Of a stretch of 30,541 nt of DNA, positions 1 through 23,974 are shown one piece after another. Origin of the DNA: an uncultured Planctomycetales bacterium (GTDB lineage: Bacteria; Omnitrophota; Gorgyraeia; Gygaellales; Profunditerraquicolaceae). Position 1 is the stretch's first letter. Each line of letters opens with the position of its first letter. The notes under the pieces were generated by a model. The model worked only from the letters and a program-made list of their open reading frames with translations. It was not told the DNA's origin and did not search any database. A program made the translations under genes and the position numbers. The DNA lies in NCBI GenBank assembly GCA_964554825.1, contig CAZKQC010000001.1:1-30541 (forward strand), given 5' to 3'.

Positions 1-704
1 AGATTAAGAGATTGTCGATAGTTATCCCTATCTATAACGAAGTAGAGTTTGTCCTGGACACTATACGAGATATAGTAAAGGTAGCCTCCGCAATGATCGA
101 AGACCTTGAGGTTATTGCGGTAGATGATAATAGTTCAGATACCACTGCGGCTATCCTGCGTAACTTGGCCGCGCAAGAGAAACGATTGCGGGTGGTCAAC
201 AACCGCAGAAAGAGAGGGTTGGGTAATGCCCTGCGTACCGGATTTTGCCATGCCGCCAAAGAAGCAATCCTCTATACCGATGCCGATATGCCCTGTGACC
301 TCGGAGAGTTAAGAAAGGCAATTACCTTAATGGAAGAAGAGGACGCAGATATAGTTTCTGCCTACCGCCTGAATAATAAGCAGGGCGGGCTCAAGCGCTA
401 TCTCTATTCCAGGGTATTCAACTTCTTTATGCGTACCTTGTTTCATCTGGGCGTCAGGGATATCAATTTTTCTTTTAAGCTTTTTAGAAAAAACCGGCTG
501 GACGCCTTACGGCTAGAATCACAGGGCTCTTTTATTAATGCCGAATTATTCGCCAAGGCTGTTAAGGCGCAGTATAAGATTGTTCAGTTTCCGGCGTTCT
601 TTCTGCTTCGACAGAGGGGTAAATCTAAGCTGGATAATATCGGTAATATCGCGACGATTATCTGCGAGTCGGTTCTTTTTCTGTGCAAACAGTGGCATTC
701 CTGA
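1..704 (+). CDS. GT2 glycosyltransferase, polyprenol-phosphate glycosyltransferase (DPM1/ArnC-like); probably 5'-truncated by the window edge
   Basis: SIVIPIYNE, VDDNSSDTT, GLGNALRTG, DAD (YTDADM), ADIVSAYR and DINFSFKLFR are typical DPM-like GT2 motifs. The frame is open to the window edge (att aag aga ttg = IKRL before SIVIP), so the true start probably lies upstream of the TTG at 12. Confidence 0.9.
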   Translation, partial: IKRLSIVIPIYNEVEFVLDTIRDIVKVASAMIEDLEVIAVDDNSSDTTAAILRNLAAQEKRLRVVNNRRKRGLGNALRTGFCHAAKEAILYTDADMPCDLGELRKAITLMEEEDADIVSAYRLNNKQGGLKRYLYSRVFNFFMRTLFHLGVRDINFSFKLFRKNRLDALRLESQGSFINAELFAKAVKAQYKIVQFPAFFLLRQRGKSKLDNIGNIATIICESVLFLCKQWHS

Positions 705-721
705 CCAGGGACTGTTAATCG

Positions 722-1381
722 ATGAGAGAATTGAGAGGGGGCAGTTTCCGTGAATTTTATGCTGCGCTTCCCTGGCGCTACAAGCTTTATGTTAACCTGC
801 GTTTAAGCAGCTGTCCTTTTGAAAAGATCGAAAAGGCGGTGCCTGCTGCAGGTAGGATCCTTGATCTTGGCTGCGGAGTGGGATTATTCTCATTTTTCCT
901 AACTTCAGGCTCTAAGCAGCGGGATATCCTGGGAGTTGATTGCAGGAGAGAACGTATCCTTCTGGCCCGCAAGATTAATGCCGAGAGAGGCTCTGCGGGG
1001 ATTGATTTTAGGCATGCCGATATTGTTTCCTGGGAGTACGGCAGCGATTATGACTGCATACTCTTAAGCGATGTCCTCTATCAGCTTCCGCTGGCGGACA
1101 AAAAGAAGGTTTTAAAGAAGAGTTTTTCTGCTTTGAGCAGCACAGGGGTGTTGGTGGTTAAAGAGGTTGAGCTCGGGCCCTCCCTGAAGATGCTCTGGTG
1201 TTATCTGCAGGAATGTTTTATGGCGCGCATAGCTGGTTTAAATACCAGGCGGGTAGAGGCTATGAGTGCCAACGGCCTCTGTGCAATTATCCGCGAGGCC
1301 GGGTTTCGGGTCAGAAGCGAGAAGATAGACCAAGGCTATGCCTACCCTCATATTCTCTGCGTAGGTAGAAAAGATGGGTAA
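722..1381 (+). CDS. Class I SAM-dependent methyltransferase
   Basis: Motif I ILDLGCGVG, acidic residue after strand 2 (LGVD), YDCILLSDVLY and GVLVVKE. Confidence 0.9.
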   Translation: MRELRGGSFREFYAALPWRYKLYVNLRLSSCPFEKIEKAVPAAGRILDLGCGVGLFSFFLTSGSKQRDILGVDCRRERILLARKINAERGSAGIDFRHADIVSWEYGSDYDCILLSDVLYQLPLADKKKVLKKSFSALSSTGVLVVKEVELGPSLKMLWCYLQECFMARIAGLNTRRVEAMSANGLCAIIREAGFRVRSEKIDQGYAYPHILCVGRKDG

Positions 1382-2771
1382 ACAGTTAAAGGTCCTCCTT
1401 GTTAATCCTCCTTCAGAGCAGCCCTGTATAAGGGATTACTACTGCAGTTTCTCGTCACAAGCTAGTTACTACTGGCCCCCTCAGGACCTGGTGCTTTTAA
1501 GCGGCACCCTGAAAGATATTACGCAGGTTGAGTATTTAGATCTGCAGGGGCAGCGGCTGGGCGCGAAAGAGGGACTGGAACGCATCGCCAGGAACGCTTA
1601 TGACGCCGTAGTGTTTACCAGCGGTTCGCTTAGCCTGGAGACAGACCTTTTGTTTATAAAGATGGTAAAGGAGCGCTTGCCGCAGGCTAAGACTATTGTC
1701 AGCGCCGCGCCTTTTATCTTTATCGGAGAACAGGTTATCCGGCAATCGCCTTTCTTAGATGGCATACTGCTCGATTTTACCAACGCAGACCTGCTTTATT
1801 TTCTGAGTAGAGAGTATGATTGTATAAAAAATATGTTCTACCGCCGCGAAGACGGCGGAATAATCTTAGAAAACAGGCCTTTAGCTGATAGTTTCTCTCT
1901 ACCTGCCCCATATCATGGGCTTTTCCTTTCCGGTTTACACCGGATGCCTCCTTTTGTTTTTGGCCATAAGCCATTTCTGACTACCATTGCCTCCACCGGA
2001 TGTCCTTTTAAGTGCACCTTTTGTGTTGCCGGACGGGTTAAATACAGATACAGGGAATTAGACAATCTTATTGCTGAGCTTAGAGAGATGCACTCAAGGC
2101 TAGGAGTAAGGAATGTGTTCTTTGCCGACTGCCATTTTCTTGCTAACCCCATCCGTAGTTCGGCTATCTGCTCAGAGCTTATCTCTAATTTTTCCGGAAC
2201 CCTGAGCTGGATCTGTAATAGCCGTATCGAGCCACTCCTTGATGAAAAGATGGTGATCTCGCTCAGCAAGGCAGGATGCAAGATGGTTATGATAGGTGCG
2301 GAGAGCGCTTCTTCCGAGATGCTTGACCGCTACGCCAAGGGTCTCTCGGCGCAGGACGTAGAGAAGGCAGTCCGTTACTGCCGCAGGCAGGGGATTTATA
2401 CCCTTCTTTATTTTATCCTCGGCCTGCCTGGTGAAGATGAGATTTCCCTGCGGCGCACCAGAGAATTCATTGACCGGACTGCCTGCGATTTTATATCGCT
2501 TAGTTTTGCCATGCCGGATTTTGGTACTGCGCTCAGAGATGTTGCAATCGATGCCGGGTTGTGTGATAACGAGCTTGGGGGCTGGGACCACACACGCAGT
2601 CCCTACCTTAAAAGCACGTACTCCCCTGATGAGCTTATCGGGATCAGGAAGAGTATTTACCGCAGATTTTATTTTAAGCCCCGCAGGCTGCTAGAGAGGG
2701 CAAAGGATATAAGATCGTTAAGATTTGTTGACCTGGAAGAGGGGGTGAGATTATTAAAAAGCTGGTGGTGA
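1374..2771 (+). CDS. Cobalamin-binding-domain radical SAM protein (COG1032-like, class B type) #1
   Basis: N-terminal LLVNPP...WPPQDL, then STGCPFKCTFC (CxxxCxxC), FFADCHF, WICNSR, GAESAS, FILGLPGED and PDFGT. Overlaps the upstream gene by 8 nt. Confidence 0.85.
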   Translation: MGKQLKVLLVNPPSEQPCIRDYYCSFSSQASYYWPPQDLVLLSGTLKDITQVEYLDLQGQRLGAKEGLERIARNAYDAVVFTSGSLSLETDLLFIKMVKERLPQAKTIVSAAPFIFIGEQVIRQSPFLDGILLDFTNADLLYFLSREYDCIKNMFYRREDGGIILENRPLADSFSLPAPYHGLFLSGLHRMPPFVFGHKPFLTTIASTGCPFKCTFCVAGRVKYRYRELDNLIAELREMHSRLGVRNVFFADCHFLANPIRSSAICSELISNFSGTLSWICNSRIEPLLDEKMVISLSKAGCKMVMIGAESASSEMLDRYAKGLSAQDVEKAVRYCRRQGIYTLLYFILGLPGEDEISLRRTREFIDRTACDFISLSFAMPDFGTALRDVAIDAGLCDNELGGWDHTRSPYLKSTYSPDELIGIRKSIYRRFYFKPRRLLERAKDIRSLRFVDLEEGVRLLKSWW

Positions 2772-3610
2772 ATGCGGATGACTTTGGCCTTGCCTCCGGG
2801 ATGAACCGGGGGATCATGGAATCGGTCGGGGGCGGATATGTCTCGAGCGTTTCTCTGTGTGTCAATGGCAGGGCTTTTGAAGAAGCGCTGGCCTTGATAA
2901 GGAAGAATCCCCGTCTTGATATCGGACTGCATATTGTCCTGGTTGGGGAGAGGCCGGTGAGCGAGCCCGAGCTTATAAAAAGCCTGGTAGATAGAGGAGG
3001 GAATTTCCATAAAGATGCCTTTATTTTTCTTGGGCGTTACCTTCTACGCAGGATTAATGCGCAGGAGATCGAAAGCGAAATCTGCGCCCAGTTTCAGAAA
3101 GCCAGGGAGGCGGGCCTTAATATTTCCCATGTGGATAGTCACCAGCACCTGCATATGCTGCCGGGGATTTTAGATATTATCATCAGGATGTGTAAGCGTT
3201 ATCGCGTCTCTTTTATCCGCACACCCCGTTGTCCTGTGGTCAGGCATTGGCGTTTTGCCAGAAAGAAAAAGATATTTGCTCAGCTGGGGCTGAATATATT
3301 AGCAGCGCTGGCCAGAAACAAGATTAATGCCTCTGGGTTACGCACCGTCGATGTTACCAGCGGGACGCTATACTCCGGCGCGCTGAATGAAGAGCGTTTT
3401 TCAGCTTTCGTCTCTTCACTGGAAGACGGAATTGCAGAAATTATCTGCCACCCTGCTTTCGTAGATACCTTTGTTTCAGAGCGATACGGAGACTGGCACT
3501 ACGATTGGGAGGGTGAGCGCAGGTTTTTGGCTTCAGATAGGCCCGGGGTGTATATGAAGCGCCGTGAGGTTACCCTGACTGATTTCTCTAGCCTGGCCAA
3601 TGGATTTTAA
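2753..3610 (+). CDS. YdjC/ChbG/HpnK-family carbohydrate deacetylase (start ATT 2753, or GTG 2765 as in the ORF track)
   Basis: VNADDFG, IGLHIVL, HVDSHQHLH and EIICHP are the family metal-binding and catalytic motifs. The start codon is discussed under findings. Confidence 0.9.
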   Translation: MKKLVVNADDFGLASGMNRGIMESVGGGYVSSVSLCVNGRAFEEALALIRKNPRLDIGLHIVLVGERPVSEPELIKSLVDRGGNFHKDAFIFLGRYLLRRINAQEIESEICAQFQKAREAGLNISHVDSHQHLHMLPGILDIIIRMCKRYRVSFIRTPRCPVVRHWRFARKKKIFAQLGLNILAALARNKINASGLRTVDVTSGTLYSGALNEERFSAFVSSLEDGIAEIICHPAFVDTFVSERYGDWHYDWEGERRFLASDRPGVYMKRREVTLTDFSSLANGF

Positions 3611-3621
3611 GGGTGGTTACC

Positions 3622-5052
3622 ATGGTTGAGTCTAAAACTGGCTGCGTTAAGAGGGCGCTGTTAATTAATCCTCCGACAGGGTTATATGACCGCTATGAGC
3701 GTTGTCAGGCATTGACGGAATCAGAGTCTGTGAATATAATCCGGCCGCCCCTGGACCTTATGTATCTAGCTGCTATATGCAGGAGGCAGGGGGTGGAGGC
3801 GGTAATCCGCGACTACCCCGCCCAAAAGGCAGGATGGCAGGAGGTAGAACGGGATATCGCAGGCTTACGGCCGGATTTTTTACTGGCTAGTTTAACGCTG
3901 GCTACTTATAAAGATGATATGCGTGCTTTTGCGATAGCTAAGAAATTTAATCACCTGACTTTGACCGTAGCCAAGGGGATTCTTACCCGGACAGGCGAGG
4001 AGTTGTTTGCGCATTATCCCGGGATAGACCTTCTCCTGCGCCAGGAGCCGGAGCTGGCCTGGGAAGAGCTCTTGGCCGGAAAGCCCCTTGGTGAGATTCA
4101 GGGATTGACCTGGCGCAAGGGGGCTAGAGAGGTAGTTAATCCCCCGCGGCAAAGAGACGCAGATCTGGATTATCTGCCTTTTCCTGAACGGAACCTTACA
4201 AACAACTCTTTCTACAGGATGCCGGATAATGGCAGAAAAATGGGGCTGGTTTTGACGAGTAAGGGGTGTCCTTTTCCTTGTACCTTCTGTCTTGCCCCTC
4301 TGGCAGATGGCAGCAAGGTCAGGAAGCGCAGCCCTGTTTCCCTGGTCAATGAACTGGAAGAATATGTAAGGGAGTGCGGTATTCGTGATTTCTGGTTACG
4401 CGCCGATTGTTTTACGCTTGATAAAAGATGGGTTATGGAGATATGCCAGCGTATCATCGATGGGGAGCTTCCGATACGCTGGGCTACGAACGGCCGCGTA
4501 GATAATGTTGATGAAGAGATGTTGATTGCCATGAAGAAAGCAGGATGTTTTGCATTAGGGTTTGGTGTTGAGAGCGGAAGTACAGAGACCCTGCAGCGGA
4601 TCAAGAAGGGGATAACCAGAGAGCAGGCTAAGGCAGCGGTTAGGCTCTGCCGCAGGCTGGGGATTCAGACATACCTTTTCTTTATTATCGGATTTCCCTG
4701 GGAGCGCGAGTCGCATATTATGTCAACCCTTGATTTTGCTGAAGAGTTAAACGGAGACCTCTTTAATTTCTCCTTAGCTGTGCCTTTTCCCGGCACTCCT
4801 CTCTTTACCGAAGCAAAAGAGCTGGGGCTTCTGGGGGAGGAGGGCTCTTACGCAGATTTTAATTATTCCTCTGCCGCTATGGATACTCTTTATCTCAAAA
4901 GAGAACGATTGCTTGAGCTTGAGCGGATGGCTTATCGCCGCCTGATCCTTCGGCCTTCATATATCCTGCGTCAGGCAGGTAAGATTAAGTCTTGCCAGAT
5001 GCTTGGGGGTTATCTGAAGGCTGCCTGGCATATGTCCAAGATGTTATTCTAG
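3622..5052 (+). CDS. Cobalamin-binding-domain radical SAM protein (HpnJ/COG1032-like) #2
   Basis: LLINPPTG...RCQ, PPLDLMYLAA, TSKGCPFPCTFC, WATNGRVD, FGVESGS, FIIGFPWE and PFPGTPL. ATG 3622 is preferred over GTG 3613 on RBS spacing. Confidence 0.87.
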   Translation: MVESKTGCVKRALLINPPTGLYDRYERCQALTESESVNIIRPPLDLMYLAAICRRQGVEAVIRDYPAQKAGWQEVERDIAGLRPDFLLASLTLATYKDDMRAFAIAKKFNHLTLTVAKGILTRTGEELFAHYPGIDLLLRQEPELAWEELLAGKPLGEIQGLTWRKGAREVVNPPRQRDADLDYLPFPERNLTNNSFYRMPDNGRKMGLVLTSKGCPFPCTFCLAPLADGSKVRKRSPVSLVNELEEYVRECGIRDFWLRADCFTLDKRWVMEICQRIIDGELPIRWATNGRVDNVDEEMLIAMKKAGCFALGFGVESGSTETLQRIKKGITREQAKAAVRLCRRLGIQTYLFFIIGFPWERESHIMSTLDFAEELNGDLFNFSLAVPFPGTPLFTEAKELGLLGEEGSYADFNYSSAAMDTLYLKRERLLELERMAYRRLILRPSYILRQAGKIKSCQMLGGYLKAAWHMSKMLF

Positions 5053-5062
5053 GAGCATGTTT

Positions 5063-6418
5063 ATGGAGTCAGAGAAGATACTGTTGATTACGTCCTCACC
5101 TCACAGGCAAGGCGATTATATAAATCACCTCCCGCCTCTGGGGATTTTGTACCTGGCTGCGTACCTACAGCAGAACGGTTTTTTTGTTGATGTGGTTGAT
5201 GAAAACGTCAGTAGGCTGGATATAGCGGCGCTAGGTAACTATCGCCTTATTGGTTTTAGCATCAATGTCGCCAATATTGAAAACAGCATGAATTTGGTCT
5301 ATAGGATCCATAGCCTTTACCCCCACATACCCCTTGTTATCGGAGGGCCGCTTCCTACCACCCTGCCTGAGTTTTTCTTTGCCTGGCCGCTAGAGGCTAT
5401 CTTTATATCTGAAGCAGAAGAGAGCTTCCTGGGTTATCTTGCGGGAGGAGATTCTGCGCAGGAGCTCGGGTACTACTTTAAGAATCCTTCCACAGGTGCC
5501 TGGACTTTTAAAGGTCCTGCTCCTTATATTAAAGAGTTAGACCGCCTGCCTTTCCCTGCCCTAGAGAAAGTTACCCTGGAGCGTTATTACACGCCGGTAA
5601 AGAGGAAGGTTCCGGTATCCAGCCTTATATCATCACGTGGTTGTCCATTTACCTGTACTTTCTGTTCGAAGACTTTGGGAAATAAGCTCCGGGTCCGCTC
5701 AGCGGAAAATGTGGTGAAAGAAATAGAGTGGCAGACGAAGGTTCTGGGCGTAAGGGAGATTGCCATCTATGACGATAATTTTACCCTGGATGCCAAGCGG
5801 GCAGAGGAGATCTGCGATTTACTGATAGAAAAAGATATCAAGGTCAGCTTACAGCTTACCAACGGGGTGCGCGCTGATACCATGCGCCGGGAGCTTATCT
5901 TTAAGATGAAAAAGGCTGGGTTCTGGATGATTGCCTTTGCGCCGGAGAGCGGCAGCGAGGTAACCTTAAAGAGGTTGAAGAAGGGGTTAGAACTTAAACA
6001 GGTAGAAGATTGCGTGGCCTGGTGCAGGGAGGCTGGTATTAAGAGCTGGGTTTTCTTTATGGTGGGATTCCCCTGGGAAGATCATCGGATGCTTGGGCAG
6101 ACGATCAGGGTTGCCAAGAGGATACGCTCAGAAATTACGCATTTCTCTAATTTCACCTGCTTGCCGGGTAGTGAATTATACCAAGAGGCATGCGGGAGGG
6201 CAGATGGGTGGAGGGCTCAGGACGTAAATCTCTTCAGTAATAGGGGCAGGCTAGGCTCTTCTCGTGAAAGGTTACCGGATAAAAGAATAACAGCCAAAGG
6301 TTATGCTGCCGTGTATCTGGCAGACCCCTTAAGGATGATTAATCTTTTTTCCGTATTATCGCTTAAGGACCTTTTTGCCGTTATCTGGTACGCAGCCAGG
6401 AGCAGGAACATTTTTTAA
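5063..6418 (+). CDS. Cobalamin-binding-domain radical SAM protein #3
   Basis: PPLGILYLAAYL, IGFS, VIGGP, SSRGCPFTCTFC, IYDDNFT, NGVRAD, PESGS and FMVGFPWE. AGGAG at 5051-5055 fits ATG 5063 better than ATG 5057. Confidence 0.88.
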   Translation: MESEKILLITSSPHRQGDYINHLPPLGILYLAAYLQQNGFFVDVVDENVSRLDIAALGNYRLIGFSINVANIENSMNLVYRIHSLYPHIPLVIGGPLPTTLPEFFFAWPLEAIFISEAEESFLGYLAGGDSAQELGYYFKNPSTGAWTFKGPAPYIKELDRLPFPALEKVTLERYYTPVKRKVPVSSLISSRGCPFTCTFCSKTLGNKLRVRSAENVVKEIEWQTKVLGVREIAIYDDNFTLDAKRAEEICDLLIEKDIKVSLQLTNGVRADTMRRELIFKMKKAGFWMIAFAPESGSEVTLKRLKKGLELKQVEDCVAWCREAGIKSWVFFMVGFPWEDHRMLGQTIRVAKRIRSEITHFSNFTCLPGSELYQEACGRADGWRAQDVNLFSNRGRLGSSRERLPDKRITAKGYAAVYLADPLRMINLFSVLSLKDLFAVIWYAARSRNIF

Positions 6419-6438
6419 AAAGCGGTTTTTAAATTAAC

Positions 6439-9400
6439 ATGCAGACAAATATCAAGAAAAAGACAGACGTAATCTTTATACTTTTTTTGGCCTTTTGCGG
6501 TTTATATATTGTGCACAATATCGTCTTTCTGCGGCTGGATAATTACTTTAATTTTCTGGAGCAATCTCTTACCTCTTCCGTACGAAAGTATTATTCCATA
6601 TACGACTTCCCTAGCCAGCTTACTAATATCAAAAATTTACAACAAACCTTCGGGTCGCGCGCCCCTGACAGGGCAATTTACGATGTGTTTACCTGGCCGT
6701 TCTTTTATTTGTTTGGCGTATCCATAGATACAGCCGTGTACCACAATTTTATTTTTCTTATTATACTTATCTTCTTCACATATAAGATAGGCACCATGAT
6801 CAAAGACAGGTATGTAGGGATGCTGGCTGTCTTCTGTCTGCTGATGTATCCTGGCACGTTCGGGTACCTGCGCATTTATTTTACGTCTATTGCTACCGTG
6901 GCCTTTGTGAGTTTAGGGGTATATGCCCTTCTCTCATCGGATTACTTTAAGAAGACTAAAAAAGTCCTTCTCTGGGTTTTTTCCTGTATTATATTGCTTA
7001 AACTTAAATCCGAGAAGCCGGTTGTGTTTCTTTTTGTTCCTACCCTGATTTATCTCTACCAATCCTTCGTTCTTAACAGAAAAGATCCCGTGCATATAAG
7101 AGCCTACTACCGCAATATGCTCATCTCCTTTATGGTTTTTCTGGCATTCCTTTTATTGCTTTTTGACACCAGCGCCATGGCATTACGGTTTAATTATTAC
7201 CTAAACGAAGTCAGCGGGATATCCCATACTATGAGGGTTAGCCAGGATAAGATCGGCGTAAATATCCTGCTCATCTATCTTAAAGAATTGTTTAATAACC
7301 AGCTGGCTAACCTGGGTTTTTTCCTCTTTGCAGTAGCCCTTCCATTTTTTCTACAGTCTAAGACAAGGCATAAGGCCATTATCATCTCCTGGTTTTTGTT
7401 CCCCTACGTATTCCATTCAGTGTATTACTATGTCTGTGGGATACGCGCGACGTACTATACGATATGCTATCTGCCTGCCATTGCGCTGATGACATCCTGC
7501 GGTATATATAAAATTTTACCCGTTGTCCGGCGCAGCCTCAGGGTTATCTTCCTGGCAGTATGCGTGGCGTTGTTTTTGATGAATTATATGTATATGAGTC
7601 ACTTGAATAAACAGTTTTCCTTGGTTTGGGGCACTGCGTATACGCCTTTAATGGGAAAGATCGCCCTTACCAGGGTAAGCCCGAACAAAGGGATCCTTGA
7701 AGAGACGCAGAGGATTATCGATATCCTTGTTGAGGCGAAGGATTCAGCCGGGGTTGTCTTTGTAAACCACTATCCCACGCTGCACACTGTTTACAGCAGG
7801 ATTAGGTTAAAGAACGCTATCAAACGAAACAAGATTTTAGCCTATGACTTCTCCATTAAATTATTTAACATTGAGCCAGCTGATTCCGAGGGATACGTCA
7901 GGGACAAATTAACCCAGGCCGATCTCGTTATTAACGGAAATCGTTTTTACCCTGTGGAATCCAGCCCTGCGCTTAAAGAGTATAAACAATTTGGTACCTG
8001 GTATGACTTCAGCAGCTATATGCAAAGAGAAGAGAGGGCATACAACGCCGTTAAAAATAACCTTGTAGAGTTAAAAACAATCAAGACCAAGAATTATGAC
8101 GCCACCGTGTATCTCAGTAAGGGCGCAAGAGAGCTTTTGGAGAAAAAAGTTTCCCACCCGGTTAATTTTGACAGGATAAAAAATGAGCTTGATTTGCTAA
8201 GAGAATTACAAGACCTCCGCTATGTAGAGGAAGGCCCCCTGCGGTTATTCTTTGCCCAGGGGTGCGCCAGGATATTCTGGAAAGACCAAGAGTTAACTGG
8301 GAAAAAAGGGCTTGGGACCTCCTTTTCTGCTGGCGGTATCGGTTATAGCGGAGCAGATTTCTCCTGGGAAATTGAGAAAACATCTCCTCGAGAGATAATC
8401 GCCACTGGGTACTCTCCTGTTTTGGCTTTAAAGCAGGTGTGGAAATTTACTATAAACGAAGGGCGGCTGAGTTGGCAGATTGCATTGGAGGCAGGTAAGA
8501 TTATTAATATATATGATTTCGATGTTAATTGTCCCTTGAGGCGCGGGTATCGTAAACAGGTAGGGATGTATGGTAAAAGGGACGCCCCTTTTTTAGCTCC
8601 TCCAAGAAACAGCTTGGGTAATCTTGATCAAGAACACGCTGTTTTTCCCTGGGTTTTTCTGGATCTTGGGGATAAGGGGGTCCTAAACAGATCCTCAGCG
8701 CGCATAACAAAGGGTTTCTTCAGGGAATCCGTTTCTCTGGTGGGGTTCGGTCCCCGCCGCCTATCGCTTGCTCCAGGCAGATACGAATTTTTTCCCGGCA
8801 TCCTCTCCTTTTTTGACACAGAAGACGGATTGGCTGAATACCTACGCAAGACACAGGCTTCTCAGGAGATAAGTAAGGGCAAAGTGAGATTGTTTTTCGA
8901 TGGGGGAAGGGTAAAAATATTTTCGAGAGAGAAGGAGCTAACAGCCAAAGAAGGAGTTTTTCTCATGATCCTTTCTGCTGGCAGATGGTATTTTTCTTCA
9001 CTAGATGCCCTATGGACCGTTAAAAAAGAAACTCCTCAAAGGTTTATTCTTGAAGGCACCTGGAAAGAGCTGGCTATTTCCAGCCTCTGGGAATTCCAGG
9101 TAGAAGAGGGAGGAGTTGTTCACTACCGCCTCGATCTTAAGGCGCAGAAGGAGCTTAACCCGGAGCATGTTTTGTTTGTCGTTATGCTGCCAGATAGGTA
9201 TGGCTCTTACCTTATTCCTTCTAAAAAGGAGATAAAGAGATTCCCCTGGTTCCATCCTGATACTGAAGGATGGGATACCATTTGGGATGCGAATACTAAG
9301 CGTATTTCCAGGATAGGAGTTATGGATAGCAGAAGTAAGGAAAATGTCATTCTCGATTGCAACTTGTCTTTGGATGACTCCAACTCCGTAATCTCGAATA

Positions 9401-10633: not shown

Positions 10634-10636
10634 CCG

Positions 10637-13065: not shown

Positions 13066-13066
13066 G

Positions 13067-15269: not shown

Positions 15270-15282
15270 TAAAGGAGTATCT

Positions 15283-16482: not shown

Positions 16483-16487
16483 CCCAG

Positions 16488-17588
16488 ATGGATTACCGCA
16501 CAATCGAACGCGTTAGGCAGGGGATAAGTGATCCTCTGGTTGGCCCAGAGACAATAGCCCTCATGCTGACCAAGGCATGTAACCTTCGTTGTATTTATTG
16601 CCGTGGAGGCAGGGCAGACGAACAAGTCAATAGGCCGTCTGATATTTCTGATGAGTTATCTACGCAGGAACTCTTCGGCATCTTTGAAGATGCAAAAGAG
16701 TTCAGGGTGCAGGAAATCAACCTAGGGGGCATGTTTGGCGAACCTTTGTGTAAAAAAGATGCCACCAAGATTATCGAAAAAATTAAGTCTCTTGAGCTAG
16801 TGGGGGCTATGACTACCAACGGCAGCCTTTTGAATGCCGAGATGGCTAAGTTCCTGACTGACGTACGCTGGGATATCCTATTACTCAGTCTTGACTCAGC
16901 CGAACCGGCAACACAGCATGCCCTGCGTCCGGCATACAATAAAGAGCCTTATTTTGGAAATATTATCCAGTTTCTGGAGAGCTTAAACGCCATGGATAGT
17001 AAATTAAGGATACTGGTGAATGCGGTGATTACTAGATTAAATTACCGGAAATTACCGGAACTGGTTGCCTTTGCCAACAGGTATAGAAATATAGAATCCA
17101 TCAATGTGCTGAAGATGCTTGGCATGGGTTTGGTTAATTGCGCAGATATAGAGCTTAATAATGAGGAACTCAAAGAGTTTAAGTCACTTCTTATCGGCTT
17201 AAAGGGAGAGAAAAAAATAACTTACATGGGTAACTGGCTTCAGCCGCAAGGCCACCGGGCTGGGGCAGGGGCGGGCGCAGACATGAACCCAGTCCTTGCA
17301 TGCGGACAGAGGAAAAGGTGCTTTACCAATTATTACATTCTTTCCATCGACGCAAACGGGGATATCATTAAATGCCCTCAATACCAGTCCAGCGTAGAGG
17401 GGTTAAATATCAGGAAGAGGTCGCTTGGGGAATTATGGAAGAATGAACACCTGCGTTTTAGGGCGGAGCTGGCTGAAGAAGCGCCTTGCTTTGATGGCTG
17501 CTGTACCATATTGAAAGAGCAAAATAGACTGATAGATGGTTATCTAGTCTCCGGGGAAGATGCGCATCCCGGGCGGACTCCTCTATAA
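16488..17588 (+). CDS. Radical SAM SPASM/twitch-type protein E
   Basis: GPETIALMLTKACNLRCIYC, GGMFGEPL, TTNGS, LSLDS and C-terminal CFTN...IDANGDIIKC...CFDGCC. Confidence 0.85.
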   Translation: MDYRTIERVRQGISDPLVGPETIALMLTKACNLRCIYCRGGRADEQVNRPSDISDELSTQELFGIFEDAKEFRVQEINLGGMFGEPLCKKDATKIIEKIKSLELVGAMTTNGSLLNAEMAKFLTDVRWDILLLSLDSAEPATQHALRPAYNKEPYFGNIIQFLESLNAMDSKLRILVNAVITRLNYRKLPELVAFANRYRNIESINVLKMLGMGLVNCADIELNNEELKEFKSLLIGLKGEKKITYMGNWLQPQGHRAGAGAGADMNPVLACGQRKRCFTNYYILSIDANGDIIKCPQYQSSVEGLNIRKRSLGELWKNEHLRFRAELAEEAPCFDGCCTILKEQNRLIDGYLVSGEDAHPGRTPL

Positions 17589-17598
17589 ACTATACGGC

Positions 17599-19032
17599 AT
17601 GGGCAAGCGGACTATCATAACGTTTTTACTTATCATTGTATTCGCCCTTTCTTTGAGGCTGTATTTTTTGGGGCAGGATAATCTAACTACATATGAATTC
17701 GGCTCTATCTTCGTAGCGCACAACTAGTTAGCAAATGCAAGCTATTTCAGCGCGCAAACGTCGCACCACCCCCTTTACTACTATTTTCTTTATTGGTGGA
17801 TGCGCCTGTGGAATTCGGGATATACTGCGGGAAAACTACTATCTGTAGTCTGGGGTACATTGCTGGTCATAGCTATTATTCTGAACGCTTTCTTGAAAGA
17901 AGGGATATTAACTAAAGGGGATGCGCTGTTTGCCTCTTTTGTTGTCGCGGTTTCTCCGATACATATATTTTTCTCACACTACATCTCTCTTTATGCGTTT
18001 TTTACGCTTATCGTTTTCTTATCGAATATTTCGTTCATGTTGTTTTTAAAAAAAGATAAGCTGCGTTATAGCATAGGGTACGTATTTTTCACTACCCTCA
18101 TGCTTTATACACAAATCTGTGGGTACATCATGCTTATGATCCAGGCAGTATCATTTTTGTTTATGGGAAGGAAAGTAAAGAAATGGCTCGCGGTAATCCT
18201 GGTTATTATCGGGCTATACCTGCCCTGGTACGCCTTAGCCTTTCCTTATCAGATGCGTGTTTGGCAGACGGGGTCTCCGGGCATGAAGGCAGCAGTCAGG
18301 TATGACCCCCCCTTGCCTACTCTAGAGACGGTTTGGCAGACGCTCATAGATTATAGCGCCGGCAGTTCGTTCCTTTTGTTCTTGTTCTTTTTGGTTATCC
18401 TTTACGGTATAATAAAAAATCGACGAGATCTAAGCACCAGTTTATTTCTTCTGTTTTGGTCTACAGTTCCCATTCTCGCCTTATATTTAGTCTCGCTTCA
18501 CGTAGATTCAATATATAAACACAAAGAACTTCTTTTTGTTTCTGTGCCGATTTTCCTCTTGGTTGGCAGGGGGGTTGCGTATTGCAATAAGGGCATCAAG
18601 GCGGTTATTATTATAGCTATTGCCTCTGCCTCTACTTTACAGTTAATCAGTATTTCTTATCGCCAGGCCCCTGAGCGGTGGCGAGAGCTGGTTTCGGCGG
18701 TTTCAAAGATAAGGGCGCCCTCGGATTTAGTCATAGCCCTACAGGACCAGGAACCGCTGCGTTATTATTACCGGGATAGATTTCGCACCGCCGGGTCTAT
18801 TACTAGCCTTAAAGTTGCGGTAACTGCTGAAAAGGGAAAGTTTGACAGGCTGCTTTTGATTATGCGCCTGGATAATCCAGCTGTTAACAATGAGGCTATC
18901 GAGTACCTGAAGAGCGGCTATACCCTGCTTTCACAGCAAGAATATACATATGATAAACCTAAATACGGAGAAAGCTGCGCGATTGCGTATTATCTGTTCG
19001 GCAGAAAAAAGAAAACAACTCGTACGGACTAA
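17599..19032 (+). pseudogene. GT-C (PMT/ArnT-like, GT39-type) membrane glycosyltransferase interrupted by an in-frame TAG at 17725-17727 (nonsense allele, read-through or sequence error)
   Basis: ATG 17599 is in frame with the ORF-track start at 17800. Manual translation gives MGKRTIITFLLIIVFALSLRLYFLGQDNLTTYEFGSIFVAHN*LANASYFSAQTSHHPFYYYFLYWWMRL, which is gap-free colinear from RLYFL to HHPFYY with the N-terminus of the paralog at 19035. Confidence 0.8.
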
Positions 19033-19034
19033 CG

Positions 19035-20444
19035 ATGAATAGAAAAACGGCCATCTTATTAGCGGTCATTGTGTTCTGCGCTATTCTGGCCAGGATTTAC
19101 TTCCTGGCAAGAGCAGAATTAAGCACCTATGAGTATAATGTTATATTGCTGGCAGCGCGCACCATAACAGAAATAGTCCCTAATACTATGGCTATCGCAC
19201 ACCATCCGTTCTATTACTACGTGCTTCATTGGTGGTTGTTTCTGGTCAGGCCGATGGATATTTCCGGGAAATTATTTTCAATGCTCTGCAATACCGCATT
19301 ACTTGTCGCAATACCGCTTTTCTCTTTGCATAAGAAAGCCGTATTCAATAAGGAAGTCGCTTTGTTAACCGCGCTAATTATTGCCGTTTCTCCCTCGCAT
19401 ATATTTTATTCGCATTACGTCTCGCTATACGGATTTTTCACGCTCATTGCATTTCTCTTCAACCTCTCGTTCCTTTTGTTTGCCGAGAAGGAAAAGCTGC
19501 GCTATGCAGTATGGTATGCGGTCTTTACAACAATAATGCTCTATACGCAAATCTGCGGTTACATTATGTTTTTTATCCAGGCCGTATCTTTTGCATTTAT
19601 AGGCAAGAAGGTTAAAAAGTGGGCTGTAGTGACCTCCATTATCTTCGCGCTTTATTTACCCTGGCACATTCTGGTTTTTCCCGCACAGATGGCATCTTGG
19701 CAGGGTGGCTCTGCGGGCATGAGGGCCGCGGTTAAGCATGATCCACCTGTGCCTACGCTACAGACGCTTGGGCAGACATTCATAGATTTTAGCGCTGGAA
19801 GTCCCCAGTTGCTTTTTTTATTGATCTGGATAATGCTCTACGGAATGATTAAGAACAGAAACGAGGTCAGGGTAAACCTCTTCCTGACTGCCTGGCTTCT
19901 CCTGCCCCCTTTTATTTTGTATTTAGTCTCTCGGAATATAGACCCTGTTTATAAATCAAAAGAACTATTTTTTGTTTCCGTGCCGTTTTTCATTCTTATC
20001 GCTAAAGGAATAACGTGTTTTAGCAGGGCGATTAAAATATCCATCGTAGCGGTTACTGTGCTTGTTTCTTCTTTAGCCCTGTTGGATAAATTTTACCTTG
20101 AGCCTCCTGAACGCTGGAGCGAATTGGTTTCCAAGATAAAAAGTATTCGCTTGAGCTCGGATATCGTGATATCCTTTAATTCGCAAGAGCCGTTTAATTA
20201 CTATTATAAAGATACCCATTACGTCAGCTATAGTATCAGGGATATCGAAGATATAGTTTCCAAGATTAAGAATGAAGACAGGTTTTTTGTAGTTGTCAGG
20301 GCTGATGACCCGGTACTTAACACGCAGACTATCGAGTATCTAAAGGAAAAGCACCCCTTCCTTTCAGAAAAGCAATATGGCTATGCCAGGTCCAGATACG
20401 GGGAGAGCTGCGGGGTCGGGTATTATTTATTCCGCAGAAATTAA
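19035..20444 (+). CDS. GT-C (PMT/ArnT-like, GT39-type) membrane glycosyltransferase; intact tandem paralog of 17599-19032
   Basis: Multi-TM protein with RIYFL...HHPFYYYVLHWW, AVSPSHIFYS..VSLYG, LYLPW and a C-terminal soluble domain (PERW.ELVS.....R..SD.VI). These blocks are shared with the upstream copy. Confidence 0.82.
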   Translation: MNRKTAILLAVIVFCAILARIYFLARAELSTYEYNVILLAARTITEIVPNTMAIAHHPFYYYVLHWWLFLVRPMDISGKLFSMLCNTALLVAIPLFSLHKKAVFNKEVALLTALIIAVSPSHIFYSHYVSLYGFFTLIAFLFNLSFLLFAEKEKLRYAVWYAVFTTIMLYTQICGYIMFFIQAVSFAFIGKKVKKWAVVTSIIFALYLPWHILVFPAQMASWQGGSAGMRAAVKHDPPVPTLQTLGQTFIDFSAGSPQLLFLLIWIMLYGMIKNRNEVRVNLFLTAWLLLPPFILYLVSRNIDPVYKSKELFFVSVPFFILIAKGITCFSRAIKISIVAVTVLVSSLALLDKFYLEPPERWSELVSKIKSIRLSSDIVISFNSQEPFNYYYKDTHYVSYSIRDIEDIVSKIKNEDRFFVVVRADDPVLNTQTIEYLKEKHPFLSEKQYGYARSRYGESCGVGYYLFRRN

Positions 20445-20468
20445 ACTTATAAAAAGAGCAGATTGTTA

Positions 20469-21500
20469 ATGCGAGATTTACTTTTGTGGTTATCGAGAAA
20501 AATTAATTACCCCTTCCTGCCGCCGCAGGTAATGCAGATCTCCCTTACCTATCGTTGTAACTTGCACTGTAAAATGTGCAATATCTTTGGCCTCTTGCCC
20601 CAGGAAGAAGAATTAACTACCGCGCAGGTCTTTCATGCTATTGACGAGGCGCGCGCCTATAATATAGGAGAGGTGCTTCTTACCGGAGGAGAGCCCCTGG
20701 TCAGAGAAGACCTGGGCGCGATATGCCGGCATTGTGCCGAGCAGGGACTCAGGAGCATCATCACCACTAACGGGGCCCTGATTGATGCGAGAATGGCCCA
20801 GGAGTTATCCGCCTGGGGGGTGAGCCATATCCATGTTTCTCTTGATGGCCTGGAGGCAACCAATGATTTCTTCAGGGGTAACAATGCCTTTAAGAAGGCT
20901 GTTGAAGGGATTGTCATTCTCAATAACAAGAGAAAAAACACCCGTTTTTTTTCACTCGGGGTCGCCTGTACCGTAATGGATAATAATGTGCAGGAATTAT
21001 CCGAGCTGCTTAAGATGGCGGATAGCCTCGGAGTAGACGTAATTAATTTTCAGCCGTTAGTAAGCGACAATGCCAACTTTCTAGACAAGAAGCTTCCTTC
21101 CTTCTGGGTACGGCAAGAGAAGATCCCTCTCCTAGAAGAGGAGATAAAAAAGATACGGCATTACCAGCCTCTTCATATTACCGTTTATGAAGAACCGCGC
21201 CTGGAGCTCTTGGTTGACTATTATCAGCGCAGGCTTTTGCCGAGGGACTGGGTTTGTTTCGGAGGATTTAAAACAGTTTTTATCTGTTATGATAAACGCA
21301 AACCTTTGATTTATAGTTGTCACGGCATATGCGGGGATCTGGAGGAGGTCACCTTAAAGAAGGCCTGGCTTTCCAAGGATGCCCGTAAACTTCGCCTGCA
21401 CTCCGGTGCCTGCAGAGAATTATGCATGCAGAGCTGTTATTCTCAGGAGTCTGCTCAAAGTTTAAAGCGGATTTTATTCCGCGGCAAAAGGAAGAAGTAA
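20469..21500 (+). CDS. Radical SAM SPASM/twitch-type protein F (close paralog of 10637-11704)
   Basis: WLSRKINYP..PP, LTYRCNLHCKMC, TGGEPL, TTNG, SLDG and DWVCFGG...CRELCMQSC. ATG 20469 is preferred over TTG 20463. Confidence 0.88.
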   Translation: MRDLLLWLSRKINYPFLPPQVMQISLTYRCNLHCKMCNIFGLLPQEEELTTAQVFHAIDEARAYNIGEVLLTGGEPLVREDLGAICRHCAEQGLRSIITTNGALIDARMAQELSAWGVSHIHVSLDGLEATNDFFRGNNAFKKAVEGIVILNNKRKNTRFFSLGVACTVMDNNVQELSELLKMADSLGVDVINFQPLVSDNANFLDKKLPSFWVRQEKIPLLEEEIKKIRHYQPLHITVYEEPRLELLVDYYQRRLLPRDWVCFGGFKTVFICYDKRKPLIYSCHGICGDLEEVTLKKAWLSKDARKLRLHSGACRELCMQSCYSQESAQSLKRILFRGKRKK

Positions 21501-21501
21501 T

Positions 21502-22782
21502 ATGGATGCTCTATTAAAGAAGGCGTGTATAGATTTTGCGGATAAACTAGGTTTTTATCTGGGGAGAAAATTTTCTGCGCCCTTTACGCCTGCGGAACAC
21601 GTATATTTTTCCCTCACCAACAGATGTAATCTCAGTTGTCAGATGTGCGAGATCTCCCGTAATCCCAGCCGCAAGGAAGATGAACTGAGCACTGCCCAGA
21701 TAAAAGATATTATCCTGCAGATTAAAGATATGGGGATACGCCATGTTATATTCTCAGGAGGAGAGCCGCTGTTGCGGGAGGATCTTCTGGAGATCGTGGA
21801 GTTTGCGACTGCGCAGGGCCTTGCCATGGTGGATATTATTACTAATGGTGCGCTCTTAGATGATAGTATTATCGAGAAGTTAATACGGGCCCGCGTCAAC
21901 CATATAACCATCTCTTTAGATGGCATGGGAGAGGTCAACGATTTAATCCGGGGATCAGGGGTCTTTGAGAAAGCCGCCAGGAACATAGATAAAGTAAATT
22001 TCTACAAGGCCAAGCATCACTCTTCCTCTCCAAGCGTAGGAATAAACTTTACCGTCATGGACAAGAATATAGACGATATTTTACCTATGGTTTCATTCGC
22101 CCGCTCCAAGGGGTGCAATATCGTGGTCTTTCAGCCCATACTTTTCAATAATACTAAAATGTACGAGAAGAAGACTAATGCGTTATGGGTTTCCAGGCCG
22201 CATATCGTAAAATTAAAGAAAATCATAGCCAGGGTTATCGAACTTAAACACAGTCTGGATGACCTTTATATTTATACCGATACCCAGGTCTTGAAGGCGC
22301 TCCCCGGTTATTTTAGAGGCAAAAGGCCTAAGGGGAATTTTAAATGCTATGAAGGTATCAAGAGGATAGTGATTACCTGCAGCGGAACGCTATGGAGCTG
22401 TTTAGGCCTGTACGGAGACTTGCGGACGCAAGGGCTGAAAGAAGCCTGGTTTTCAGCGGAAATGAGCCGCTTGCGCAAAGAGAGTAAGCGGTGTAAGGAG
22501 CACTGCTTGCAGGATTGCGTATATTTTCCTTCGGATATCCATCGTGAGTTTGCCGGGGTGTTAGATAGAATCAGGGGGGCATCCAGGCAAGAGAAGGAGC
22601 AATTAAGAGAGATATTGCTAAGCCGCATAGATGGGTATGCGCGCATATTGTCCGGCAAGGCAGATACGCAGTCCCCGGGCCTCTTCCAGAGAATAAAGTT
22701 ATTATATGAGCTCAATAGGCTTAGAGGCATGAGAAGGAAGGTATCGGGTATAAAATCGCTTGCCTCAGACAATCTCTTGTGA
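21502..22782 (+). CDS. Radical SAM SPASM/twitch-type protein G with C-terminal extension
   Basis: LTNRCNLSCQMC, SGGEPLLR, ITNG, ISLDG and CYEG...C...CKEHCLQDC followed by a ~80-aa helical tail. Confidence 0.88.
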   Translation: MDALLKKACIDFADKLGFYLGRKFSAPFTPAEHVYFSLTNRCNLSCQMCEISRNPSRKEDELSTAQIKDIILQIKDMGIRHVIFSGGEPLLREDLLEIVEFATAQGLAMVDIITNGALLDDSIIEKLIRARVNHITISLDGMGEVNDLIRGSGVFEKAARNIDKVNFYKAKHHSSSPSVGINFTVMDKNIDDILPMVSFARSKGCNIVVFQPILFNNTKMYEKKTNALWVSRPHIVKLKKIIARVIELKHSLDDLYIYTDTQVLKALPGYFRGKRPKGNFKCYEGIKRIVITCSGTLWSCLGLYGDLRTQGLKEAWFSAEMSRLRKESKRCKEHCLQDCVYFPSDIHREFAGVLDRIRGASRQEKEQLREILLSRIDGYARILSGKADTQSPGLFQRIKLLYELNRLRGMRRKVSGIKSLASDNLL

Positions 22783-22794
22783 TAGTTTATTAAC

Positions 22795-23817
22795 ATGAAT
22801 AGAGCCGTTATTTTATTGCTGTTAGCGTTTTTTCTAGCAGGCTGTGCAACCTATAAATTCCATCACGGTCAGGCCCCCTACGATAAAGGGTACGTGGCCT
22901 CAAGGGATAGCTATACTATCCCGGGATATACCCTAGGCAAAGACAATAGTGTCCCCGCTGATCTGGCCCTGGCAAAGCAGCGTTTCTCAAGACGCCGCAG
23001 AGTAGTCGAGGACTACTATAAAAAGATGGGAGCTATCGAAAACCGTTTTAAGATGGCGGTCTATGATCCGGCGGTTATGTTCATAAAATTAATCGGCGGG
23101 GTATTCCGCCTGCCTTTTATCGCCATATCGGATTATAAATACGACCACAATCCAGCATATAGAGAGAAGGTCAGGAAGCTGGAAGAGGAGAAAGACCTAC
23201 GGGAGGAAGCCAGGATCGCCCGGCTCAGGGAGAAGCTAAGCGCCTATATTAATAAGACCCTGGATTCTGAGAATTATCCGGTTTCGGCAAAACAAGGTAA
23301 ATCTGCTAAGACCCTGCCGAAAGCAGAATTGGTTGCAAAAGAGCTTTCGCAGATAGAGGCTTCATCGAGTCAGGCAGCCACCGGGGTTTCTGGCCAAGCT
23401 ATCCCTGTACAGAGCCCTACCGCAGTAAGCGCAGAGCTGGATAAGGTACAGCGCGAGCAAAAGATGGCCCAGACAATGCAGCGGCTACCGCAGGAAAAAC
23501 CAGCGAAAAAAGTAGCGCAACCCAAGACGCCTGCGCCATCCGGACAACCCAGGGCCATAATTATAGCTAAACCGCAAAAGGGTTTTTCACCGCTGGCCGT
23601 GCATCTGTACGGATCCAGGTCCACCAGTCCGCAAGGCGCTATTGTATCCTACTCCTGGGATTTTGGAGACGGGGATACCTCCGAAAAAGCGAACCCGGTA
23701 AATACCTACTATAGTGGCTCTTTCCAACCGCAACAGTTTACTGTTACCCTGACTGTTAAAGATAGCAGAGGCAACACCGCTACTACCAGCAGCGTTATCG
23801 AGGTTTTAAACAGGTAA
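22795..23817 (+). CDS. Lipoprotein with C-terminal PKD domain
   Basis: Signal peptide II with lipobox FLAG-C, a helical/low-complexity Q/A/P-rich linker, and PKD motifs YSWDFGDG...ANPVNTY...VTLTVKD. Confidence 0.82.
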   Translation: MNRAVILLLLAFFLAGCATYKFHHGQAPYDKGYVASRDSYTIPGYTLGKDNSVPADLALAKQRFSRRRRVVEDYYKKMGAIENRFKMAVYDPAVMFIKLIGGVFRLPFIAISDYKYDHNPAYREKVRKLEEEKDLREEARIARLREKLSAYINKTLDSENYPVSAKQGKSAKTLPKAELVAKELSQIEASSSQAATGVSGQAIPVQSPTAVSAELDKVQREQKMAQTMQRLPQEKPAKKVAQPKTPAPSGQPRAIIIAKPQKGFSPLAVHLYGSRSTSPQGAIVSYSWDFGDGDTSEKANPVNTYYSGSFQPQQFTVTLTVKDSRGNTATTSSVIEVLNR

Positions 23818-23892
23818 TAAGTAATTCAAAACGCCCCGCCCAATCCTAATAAATAACGCAGGATGCCATTACAGCCCTAGTTTTACTTAGCC

Positions 23893-23968: not shown

Positions 23969-23974
23969 CAGGAG

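Follow-up and report, generated by a model that had tools for sequence, protein, structure and literature searches.

Introduction

Radical S-adenosylmethionine (rSAM) enzymes with a B12-type domain follow upon glycosyl transfer and N-deacetylation in two described settings, namely the hopanoid enzymes HpnI, HpnK and HpnJ and the aminoglycoside step leading to AprD4, the radical diol-dehydratase of apramycin biosynthesis that acts as an amino-sugar dehydratase. The deacetylases of the YdjC family catalyse the de-N-acetylation of GlcNAc-type sugars. To our knowledge, sugar-acting rSAM enzymes are known as single enzymes of antibiotic pathways and of hopanoid head-group synthesis, and we know of no characterised envelope-glycan pathway with rows of such enzymes; literature searches found none. 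In the three-component systems of extracytoplasmic glycosylation, such as GtrB/GtrA/Gtr* and the polyprenyl-phosphoribose synthase/MATE/GT136 system of Citrobacter, a single sugar is charged on polyprenyl phosphate and transferred outside the cytoplasm by a glycosyltransferase of the GT-C fold (PMC11127046). These systems are accessory, mobile and serotype-converting, and auxiliary enzymes may alter the lipid-linked sugar (PMC11127046). The present analysis concerns a block of 19 co-oriented genes, 11 of which encode rSAM enzymes, at positions 1-23817 of a stretch of 30,541 nucleotides (contig CAZKQC010000001.1 of assembly GCA_964554825.1, from an uncultured bacterium of the Omnitrophota; hereafter the window).

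The block is composed of two separable accessory cassettes, module A (1-9534) and module B (9509-23817), and not of one unit. We lean, with reserve, towards reading it as part of a strain-variable envelope-glycan system, with rSAM enzymes in place of, or in addition to, the usual sugar-tailoring steps. The literature on rSAM enzymes in Omnitrophota or Omnitrophica and on rSAM enzymes together with GT-C proteins or O-antigen was searched, and no published description of these loci was found.

Two accessory cassettes in one block

The listing of open reading frames (ORFs) and Pfam place all 19 genes on the forward strand. The 18 junctions from the first gene to the last, a PKD-domain lipoprotein gene, range from −26 to +20 nt (with the start of the gene GTCa taken as 17599), as the first-pass annotation of the window had described, and the earliest true gap in the gene run, of 157 nt, comes after 23817. 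Consensus promoter and terminator scans of the block gave nothing above background. The annotation had furthermore counted 11 rSAM genes in about 21 kb, which is borne out by PF04055 in 11 forward-strand ORFs with a single CX3CX2C motif each; most of the rSAM starts given there agree as well, and three differ by 6-9 nt through the choice of start codon. Its division into four cobalamin-type (B12a to B12d) and seven SPASM/twitch-type enzymes (rS1 to rS7) holds for the architecture, a B12-type N-terminal domain with the CX3CX2C core being present in all four, but not for the Pfam threshold of the cobalamin domain PF02310, which only B12c and B12d exceed. The remaining content, i.e. a family 2 glycosyltransferase (GT2), a methyltransferase, a YdjC deacetylase, three GT-C proteins, an SGNH enzyme and the PKD lipoprotein, was recovered by domains and folds.

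To see one assembly line in one operon, as the annotation did, is nevertheless too strong a reading. The genes of the two modules overlap by 26 nt at 9509-9534, but the closest relative (L001) has 82% DNA identity across module A and lacks module B altogether. There the GT-C gene is followed by a gene for a secreted protein of 504 amino acids (aa), whose orthologue lies on another contig of the source genome, and then by the tRNA-binding gene which in the window comes next after the PKD gene. A second, independent assembly (L084) contains module B in the same order and with the same right-hand neighbours, and has an extra methyltransferase between the two GT-C genes. In addition, other genomes carry the eight rSAM genes of module B at a different place, with a GT2::rSAM fusion on one side and more rSAM and GT2 genes on the other. 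A GT-C pair accompanies the rSAM row in the window and in one near strain only.

Nothing pointed to an assembly chimera, a possibility raised in the annotation. L001 supports module A and its exit and L084 supports module B and the right junction. Depth in two DNA runs, which may themselves be the source of the assembly, is even (2-8x) over 5.5-25 kb, and the module borders show no joints. Within the block several Logan contigs run out into sequence unlike it, which fits co-existing divergent strains; these loose ends had no match in the sequences compared. The runs bearing the window are freshwater and freshwater-sediment metagenomes. The window is the entire contig C1; its left edge is the contig end, where the 5' end of the GT2 gene is cut. 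A left continuation was sought by way of the amine oxidase that stands upstream of module A in a relative (L037), and this gene maps to the own contig C42, not at any contig end.

The source genome (1.199 Mb in 144 contigs, 88% completeness) has 46 rSAM matches, about 25 of which fall in glycan-type clusters. In 21.4 kb of the block, 11 are observed versus about 0.8 expected under a uniform spread (Poisson ~1e-9), a density about 13 times the genome's own high average. Among 40 sampled relatives, with genomes of 0.9-2.5 Mb, the matches number from 10 to over 66 in each, and high rSAM counts characterise the lineage. In the two congeneric genomes there are only 22-23 matches each versus 46 here; neither the module A cassette, including its GT-C gene, nor the module B cassette was found in these two.

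Module A

Module A is a compact cassette of 7 genes:

3..704, +, GT2 of the short soluble polyprenyl-phosphate-sugar-synthase type (PF00535 103 bits; below all NCBIfam cut-offs)
722..1381, +, class I SAM-dependent methyltransferase (Methyltransf_31/23/25)
1374..2771, +, B12a, rSAM enzyme with a degenerate B12-type N-domain, HpnJ/BchE-like (PF04055 78 bits; CPFKCTFC motif)
2765..3610, +, YdjC-family carbohydrate N-deacetylase (PF04794 215.6 bits)
3613..5052, +, B12b, rSAM enzyme with a B12-type N-domain (PF04055 82 bits; HpnJ 186 bits vs 577.6)
5057..6418, +, B12c, cobalamin-domain rSAM enzyme (PF02310 55 bits, above cut-off)
6439..9534, +, membrane glycosyltransferase with a predicted GT-C fold, 1031 aa (Atlas features; AlphaFold2/Foldseek fold)

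The solved structures nearest to the GT2 are ArnC (E 4e-16), the dolichol phosphate mannose synthase of Pyrococcus and GtrB, and by this homology it is a putative polyprenyl-phosphate sugar synthase. Its orthologue (50% identity) heads module A in the loci L007-L011 and L037. The methyltransferase, which is syntenic in the module A relatives, has CpaM as its top NCBIfam match (49 bits, cut-off 180). The YdjC protein is the sole match of its family in the genome; it reaches 183.8 bits with the HpnK model, whose cut-off is 232.6, and its nearest solved structure is a chitooligosaccharide deacetylase.

With regard to the B12-type enzymes, B12a and B12b score 22.5 and 30.2 bits with PF02310, both under the Pfam cut-off of 32.1. 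B12a, with orthologues at 48-52% identity, matches the HpnJ model with 133 bits (cut-off 577.6), and AprD4 (PDB 6fd2, E 2e-32) is the nearest solved structure of B12b. The 804 homologues of B12b belong chiefly to Omnitrophota, Auribacterota and Sumerlaeota, some being labelled Elusimicrobia and others, and in one of them (P0116, 41% identity) the protein is fused to GT2 and NTP_transf_3 domains. B12c has the Sden_1168-type P-methyltransferase family as its top NCBIfam match (133 bits vs 575) and is the likeliest methyltransferase candidate among the three enzymes of this type in module A.

The order GT2, methyltransferase, B12a, YdjC, B12b, B12c and GT-C recurs in L007-L011 and L037 and partly in L006, on contigs of Omnitrophota-type metagenome-assembled genomes (MAGs) with 35-53% protein identity; L007 we take to be 'Candidatus Undivivens industriae', placed in Candidatus Omnitrophota in the NCBI taxonomy. 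In L002 and L003 the methyltransferase, the three B12-type rSAM genes and the GT-C gene are kept, and GT2 and YdjC are missing. Just upstream of module A in L037 there are GT2 genes, the genes of an ABC-2 permease and its ATPase, a further GT2 and a flavin adenine dinucleotide (FAD)-dependent amine oxidase, and downstream a nitroreductase and a carbamoyltransferase. In a genome of the same family (G155, Ca. Undivivens industriae; L114-L116, C4 67.8-78.2 kb) module A stands between orthologues of two genes which are adjacent on the own contig C141, so that the cassette moves as a unit and has been inserted at different chromosomal sites. Among 300 sampled genomes of the phylum, the core profile of the module A GT-C was found in one besides the source genome. 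The linkage of rSAM and glycosyltransferase genes in relatives, on which the annotation had laid weight, is thus confirmed by module A in at least seven other contigs, by the GT2::rSAM fusion in 11 of the 300 genomes and by the fusion of a B12b homologue to GT2 and an NTP-transferase.

Module B and the radical SAM row

The genes of module B are the following:

9509..10633, +, SGNH/GDSL hydrolase with an N-terminal transmembrane (TM) anchor, residues 17-35, the first gene of the module (PF13472 64 bits; in L084 too)
10637..11704, +, rS1, rSAM enzyme of SPASM/twitch type (PF04055 108 bits and SPASM)
11701..13065, +, B12d, cobalamin-domain rSAM enzyme (PF02310 48.6 bits, above cut-off)
13067..14332, +, rS2, rSAM/SPASM enzyme (Pfam, NCBIfam; own orthogroup)
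14325..15269, +, rS3, rSAM enzyme, twitch-like (Pfam, NCBIfam; own orthogroup)
15283..16482, +, rS4, the most divergent rSAM enzyme (PF04055 44 bits)
16488..17588, +, rS5, rSAM/SPASM enzyme (Pfam, NCBIfam; own orthogroup)
17599..19032, +, GTCa, PMT_2-like GT-C protein with an in-frame TAG (translation; alignment with the L084 orthologue and GTCb)
19035..20444, +, GTCb, intact PMT_2/GT39-like GT-C protein (51% identity to GTCa)
20463..21500, +, rS6, rSAM enzyme of SPASM/twitch type (own orthogroup; 97% identical to the L084 copy)
21502..22782, +, rS7, rSAM/SPASM enzyme, with the widest distribution in the row (more than 100 homologues with 45-69% identity, most of them labelled Omnitrophota)
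22795..23817, +, lipoprotein with a C-terminal PKD domain and a LAGC lipobox, the last gene of the block (PKD_4 54 bits)

The homologues of rS7 led to three neighbourhoods (L094, L095 and L096), which are rows of 11-13 rSAM genes with GT2 genes and, in L094 and L096, Wzy_C. All eight rSAM enzymes of module B are present in L095 and L096 with 48-65% identity and in nearly the same order. On the left the row in these two is flanked by the orthologue of a GT2::rSAM-SPASM fusion which the source genome also has (two adjacent genes in L095), and on the right by further orthologues of genes on the own contig C5, i.e. two rSAM genes, a GT2, a B12-type rSAM gene and a GT2; in L096 a GT2 stands in the slot held by the GT-C pair in the window. 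The own fusion lies at C5 13934-15868 on the minus strand (L091), has 644 aa with GT2 and rSAM/SPASM domains, and occurs at full length in 11 of the 300 genomes, which represent several families. C5 also encodes a WecA-like GT4, a FAD amine oxidase, an ABC-2 permease, about nine further rSAM enzymes, three GT2 domains and a DegT aminotransferase. The contig C4, which continues the row by synteny with L094 and L096, contains B12-type rSAM genes, a GNAT, Wzy_C, a GT2 and two Ddl-like ATP-grasp genes. Judged from orthology and gene order, module B is a displaced segment of this recurrent rSAM row of the Omnitrophota. Orthologues of B12d with at least 50% identity were found in 3 of the 300 genomes. 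A reduced row is present in G155, where the fusion, B12d, rS6, rS7 and others are retained. As a separate observation, relatives have ORFs of 1440-3331 aa (G025:C1:294525-298319 and P0294, P0313, P0305), some of them with two or three rSAM domains.

In a maximum-likelihood tree each of the seven SPASM/twitch enzymes forms its own orthogroup with L084, L095 and L096 with a support of 100% (for rS1 100/100, at 62-91% identity). The stems of the orthogroups measure 0.76-4.6 substitutions per site, and rSAM paralogues inside the genome share only 25-35% identity. According to this phylogeny the rSAM enzymes of module B are old, distinct enzymes kept one-to-one and not a recent local expansion. The orthologues of B12d in L095 and L096 show 64-65% identity and those of rS4 48-50%. 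None of the 40 relatives has an rS4 orthologue, and the rS4 family is tiny: in 1.84 billion representatives, E<=1e-30 is reached by only 5 clusters. Language-model features give, as a lead only, rSAM/SPASM clusters labelled tailed-phage (Uroviricota) and DPANN-archaeal as the nearest Atlas clusters of rS4. A minority of the rS7 homologues is labelled Auribacterota, Sumerlaeota, Elusimicrobia and others. The nearest solved structures of rS7 are BlsE (the best), GDGT-MAS, SkfB and MoaA, the matches being restricted to the N-terminal core.

SPASM (PF13186) was found in rS1, rS2, rS5 and rS7. All seven enzymes of this type carry about five C-terminal cysteines, mostly in the arrangement C-x17-18-C...C-x3-C-x3-C, and on this pattern each is predicted to have a Cys-rich C-terminal domain for auxiliary clusters. 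With the NCBIfam models of AhbD, NirJ, MoaA, the tungsten-cofactor maturase, StsB and WgkB they score 60-114 bits, where the cut-offs are 265-650. B12d reaches 97 bits with its top NCBIfam model, ApyD (cut-off 750), and 89 bits with a model of RiPP (ribosomally synthesised and post-translationally modified peptide) C-methyltransferases (281.85). None of the 11 rSAM enzymes attains any curated NCBIfam cut-off. The annotation had asked whether they would fall into known cofactor-maturation or peptide-modifying subgroups; since every match stays far under its cut-off, they stand outside these subgroups.

The copies of module B in the window and in L084 differ unevenly. DNA identity is 96% over 19022-29534, 79.5% over 9819-14140 and 71% over 14364-19013; at the protein level it is 97-99% from rS6 to HypD and 62-69% for rS2, rS4, rS5 and GTCa. 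The jump at about 19.0 kb, at the border of GTCa and GTCb, indicates a recombination breakpoint inside the locus. Allele replacement inside one locus is typical for surface-antigen loci, and it counts against a housekeeping role in cofactor synthesis. The PKD gene is present in L084 and absent from L001, L095 and L096.

The GT-C proteins

For the 1031-aa protein of module A there is no Pfam match and no sequence match in the PDB. It has about 10 N-terminal TM helices and a soluble domain which is conserved to about residue 555; in the orthologues the first 560 residues are conserved and E41 after the first TM helix is invariant. Its Atlas language-model features point to PMT_2 clusters (0.99, 197/256 shared). 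In an AlphaFold2 model of middling quality (pLDDT 64, pTM 0.64) the top 15 Foldseek matches are all GT-C enzymes (STT3, ArnT, AglB, AftA, ALG9, Emb), with TM-scores of about 0.4, as expected for such a model. By its modelled fold the protein is a GT-C enzyme, and module A would consequently encode a GT-C transferase together with its GT2. L002, L010 and L037 lack the C-terminal part of the protein past about residue 555 (window 8221-9534), and L007-L009 have a different one.

GTCb is supported by distant homologues with PF13231/PMT_2 (E 2e-19) and by a stored model (pTM 0.83) that superposes onto PMT_2/GT39 clusters with a TM-score of 0.84; about 4 close homologues exist in 5.8 billion proteins. 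In GTCa the TAG at 17725-17727 is located within a stretch that aligns to the intact 479-aa orthologue of L084 and to both GTCb sequences, and the Logan contigs offer no read-level contradiction of it. From this alignment GTCa is here probably broken and inactive, or restarted at 17800 without its first TM helix.

Genes to the right of the block

Right after the block (window 23975-25688) there are genes for a tRNA-binding domain protein, a CxxCxxCC (YkgJ-type) protein and a soluble LPG_synthase_C-domain protein, which are linked by 4-nt overlaps and kept in L001 and L084. At 26495-27628 HypF is present as its Kae1-like C-terminal half alone (377 aa), followed by a HypC-like ORF of 69 aa (27632-27841) and by HypD; the layout in L084 is identical.

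Proposed function and alternative explanations

Gene content, folds, synteny, gene fusions and strain mosaicism are the observations from which we infer a pathway, with every substrate, product and reaction in it and possibly a product common to both modules. On the cytoplasmic face the short GT2 of module A would load an N-acetylhexosamine onto polyprenyl phosphate, and YdjC would take off the N-acetyl group. The three B12-type rSAM enzymes and the methyltransferase might then modify the lipid-linked amino sugar in oxygen-independent reactions, plausibly a deoxygenation of the AprD4 kind, C-methylation or N-methylation. A flippase would export the product, and the 1031-aa GT-C would transfer it to a periplasmic acceptor, possibly lipopolysaccharide (LPS) because the genome has LpxC and a Wzy_C ligase. 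The rSAM enzymes of module B would act one after another, by radical chemistry, on an intermediate that is a sugar or glycan, and the product would be passed on by the GT-C pair here or by a GT2 elsewhere. Sugar C-methylation, oxidation or rearrangement may be the overall outcome.

It is possible that the modules are coupled. They are adjacent here; L002 and L095 share a contig in which some 4 kb separate the ends of a module A-like unit and of the row, the two being convergent; and G155 carries both on one contig about 32-45 kb apart. Against a coupling, one genome (G102) has the row without the module A GT-C, and in L007-L011 and L037 the surroundings of module A, up to 10 kb away, contain no row. 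The module A GT-C and the B12d orthologue each occur in at most about 1% of the sampled genomes, and partly in different ones.

Several observations weigh against an envelope-glycan system of this kind. Since modules A and B are apart in other genomes, they may not share a product. For their junction at 9509-9534, queries of a metagenome collection with the exact 58-nt pattern and with the SGNH protein gave no spanning contig, Logan contigs being too short for this. Module B has here no polyprenyl-phosphate GT2 of its own and a stop codon in one of its two GT-C genes. No candidate for the flippase was seen in the window, and GtrA (PF04138) was not found in the 88% complete genome, SMR and MATE proteins not having been searched for. 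Furthermore, the top family matches of the SPASM enzymes are maturases of tetrapyrroles, cofactors and peptides, all far under cut-off.

These matches lead to the other explanations. SPASM enzymes are classically peptide maturases, and the row might mature a peptide or protein of the ranthipeptide or sactipeptide kind, perhaps a secreted protein such as the PKD lipoprotein, with the glycosyltransferases then glycosylating the product. PMT/STT3-type GT-C enzymes are able to glycosylate proteins, there are weak NCBIfam matches to WgkB, StsB, PapB and ApyD, and a 44-kb cluster of Omnitrophota was labelled a ranthipeptide-like RiPP cluster by automatic mining (PMC12016038). We nevertheless judge this unlikely. 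The junctions of at most 20 nt in 1-23817 are too short to contain a precursor gene, and a search for conserved small ORFs in the window, L084, L094-L096, L114, C5 and C4 gave none, although a distant precursor is possible. Among the genes scanned there is no peptidase and no RiPP recognition element, and PapB, StsB, WgkB, CcpM and like models give 40-106 bits where 340-855 are needed. L095 and L096 retain all eight rSAM genes yet have no PKD gene, and the domain to which the rSAM domain is fused is a GT2 and not a peptide-binding domain. That the rSAM enzymes modify a lipid, such as the polyprenyl carrier, a membrane-spanning or ether lipid or a glycolipid tail, and the glycosyltransferases add the head group, seems very unlikely to us: rS6 and rS7 match the Tes model with 64-77 bits, but its cut-off is 450. 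The B12-type enzymes weakly match ladderane-type and HpnR lipid models, GDGT-MAS is among the nearest solved structures, and Mss and Hbs homologues have been reported in MAGs of Omnitrophota; yet the scores are all far under cut-off and no lipid-synthesis gene is present in the window or the syntenic rows, nor was a squalene-hopene cyclase found in the genome. The neighbours are instead GT2, GT4, GT-C, YdjC, DegT, an ABC-2 exporter and Wzy_C.

We give scarcely any credence to a modified tetrapyrrole or other cofactor as the product, with the glycan genes adjacent by chance. Several members of the row do have AhbD, AhbC, NirJ, MoaA and the tungsten-cofactor maturase as top NCBIfam matches, and in Elusimicrobia up to 13 rSAM enzymes lie beside NifHDK paralogues, suites for which such a product has been proposed (10.1101/765248). 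However, the matches cover the shared rSAM core only and are far under cut-off, neither a nitrogenase paralogue nor a tetrapyrrole gene is located in the window or in the rows of L094-L096, and the GT2 fusion speaks against it, as does the accessory and strain-variable nature of the row, which is unlike that of a cofactor pathway. A suite of the Elusimicrobia type with nitrogenase paralogues was itself considered as a candidate and rejected on account of the different gene context.

The envelope-glycan reading has a more far-reaching version, to which we incline less and which we regard as rather doubtful: each of at least eight old rSAM orthogroups and the three enzymes of module A would act by its own radical step on a lipid-linked glycan. 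C-methylation, deoxygenation, epimerisation and C-C bond formation are conceivable among these steps, and surface sugars without known counterpart would result; the shuffling of cassettes would then diversify the surface of very small, possibly host-attached cells against phages or partners. If the envelope-glycan reading is true in its general form, the loci are a source of new anaerobic carbohydrate chemistry and of new rSAM reaction types, as well as a marker of surface variation in an abundant uncultured phylum. The same orthogroups recur over the Omnitrophota together with conserved glycosyltransferase-rSAM fusions, and the loci would be a warning that automatic miners file their like as RiPP clusters.

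Comparison with known systems

In having a GT2 and a GT-C protein, module A is like the three-component systems. It is unlike them in the three B12-type rSAM enzymes, the YdjC deacetylase and the methyltransferase that stand between the loader and the transferase, which is unreported in characterised systems. The same logic is found in the Arn pathway for the aminoarabinose of lipid A (ArnC, ArnD, ArnT), where a GT2 makes an undecaprenyl-phosphate-linked N-acylated amino sugar, a deacylase frees the amine while the sugar is still on the lipid and a GT-C transfers it in the periplasm. Of solved structures, ArnC comes nearest to the module A GT2, and ArnT is among the fold matches of the GT-C. 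However, the GT2 scores only 66 bits versus the ArnC cut-off of 529, the deacylase is YdjC and not of the ArnD type, and the rSAM enzymes are without an Arn counterpart. ArnA, ArnB, an ArnD-type protein, ArnE and ArnF were not detected in the window by Pfam scans.

The hopanoid enzymes HpnI, HpnK and HpnJ, which provide bacteriohopanetetrol with glucosamine and the cyclitol ether, likewise combine a GT2, a YdjC protein and a B12-type rSAM enzyme acting on the freed glucosamine, and HpnJ and HpnK are the top NCBIfam matches of B12a/B12b and of YdjC, respectively. A ring-contracted cyclitol, though, would not serve as a GT-C donor. A squalene-hopene cyclase (PF13243) was not found in the 88% complete genome, and the HpnIJK pathway was rejected on this ground and on the scores (HpnJ 133-186 vs 577.6, HpnK 183.8 vs 232.6). 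In aminoglycoside tailoring, with GlcNAc transfer, deacetylation and radical dehydration by AprD4 and with B12-dependent C-methylation of the GenK type, an rSAM enzyme acts on a de-N-acetylated hexosamine, and AprD4 is nearest to B12b; the substrates there are soluble pseudo-oligosaccharides of secondary metabolism and not lipid-linked precursors of the envelope, and no 2-deoxystreptamine genes are present here.

The row on C5 and C4 finally invites a comparison with the ABC (ATP-binding cassette) transporter-dependent pathways of the O-antigen or teichoic-acid type (WecA, Wzm/Wzt, WaaL). More than half of the genes in the row encode rSAM enzymes, including the GT2::rSAM fusion, as is the case in none of the characterised pathways. 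What the row has in common with them, on C5 and C4 and in the relatives, is a GT4 initiator, an ABC-2 permease, GT2 enzymes and Wzy_C.

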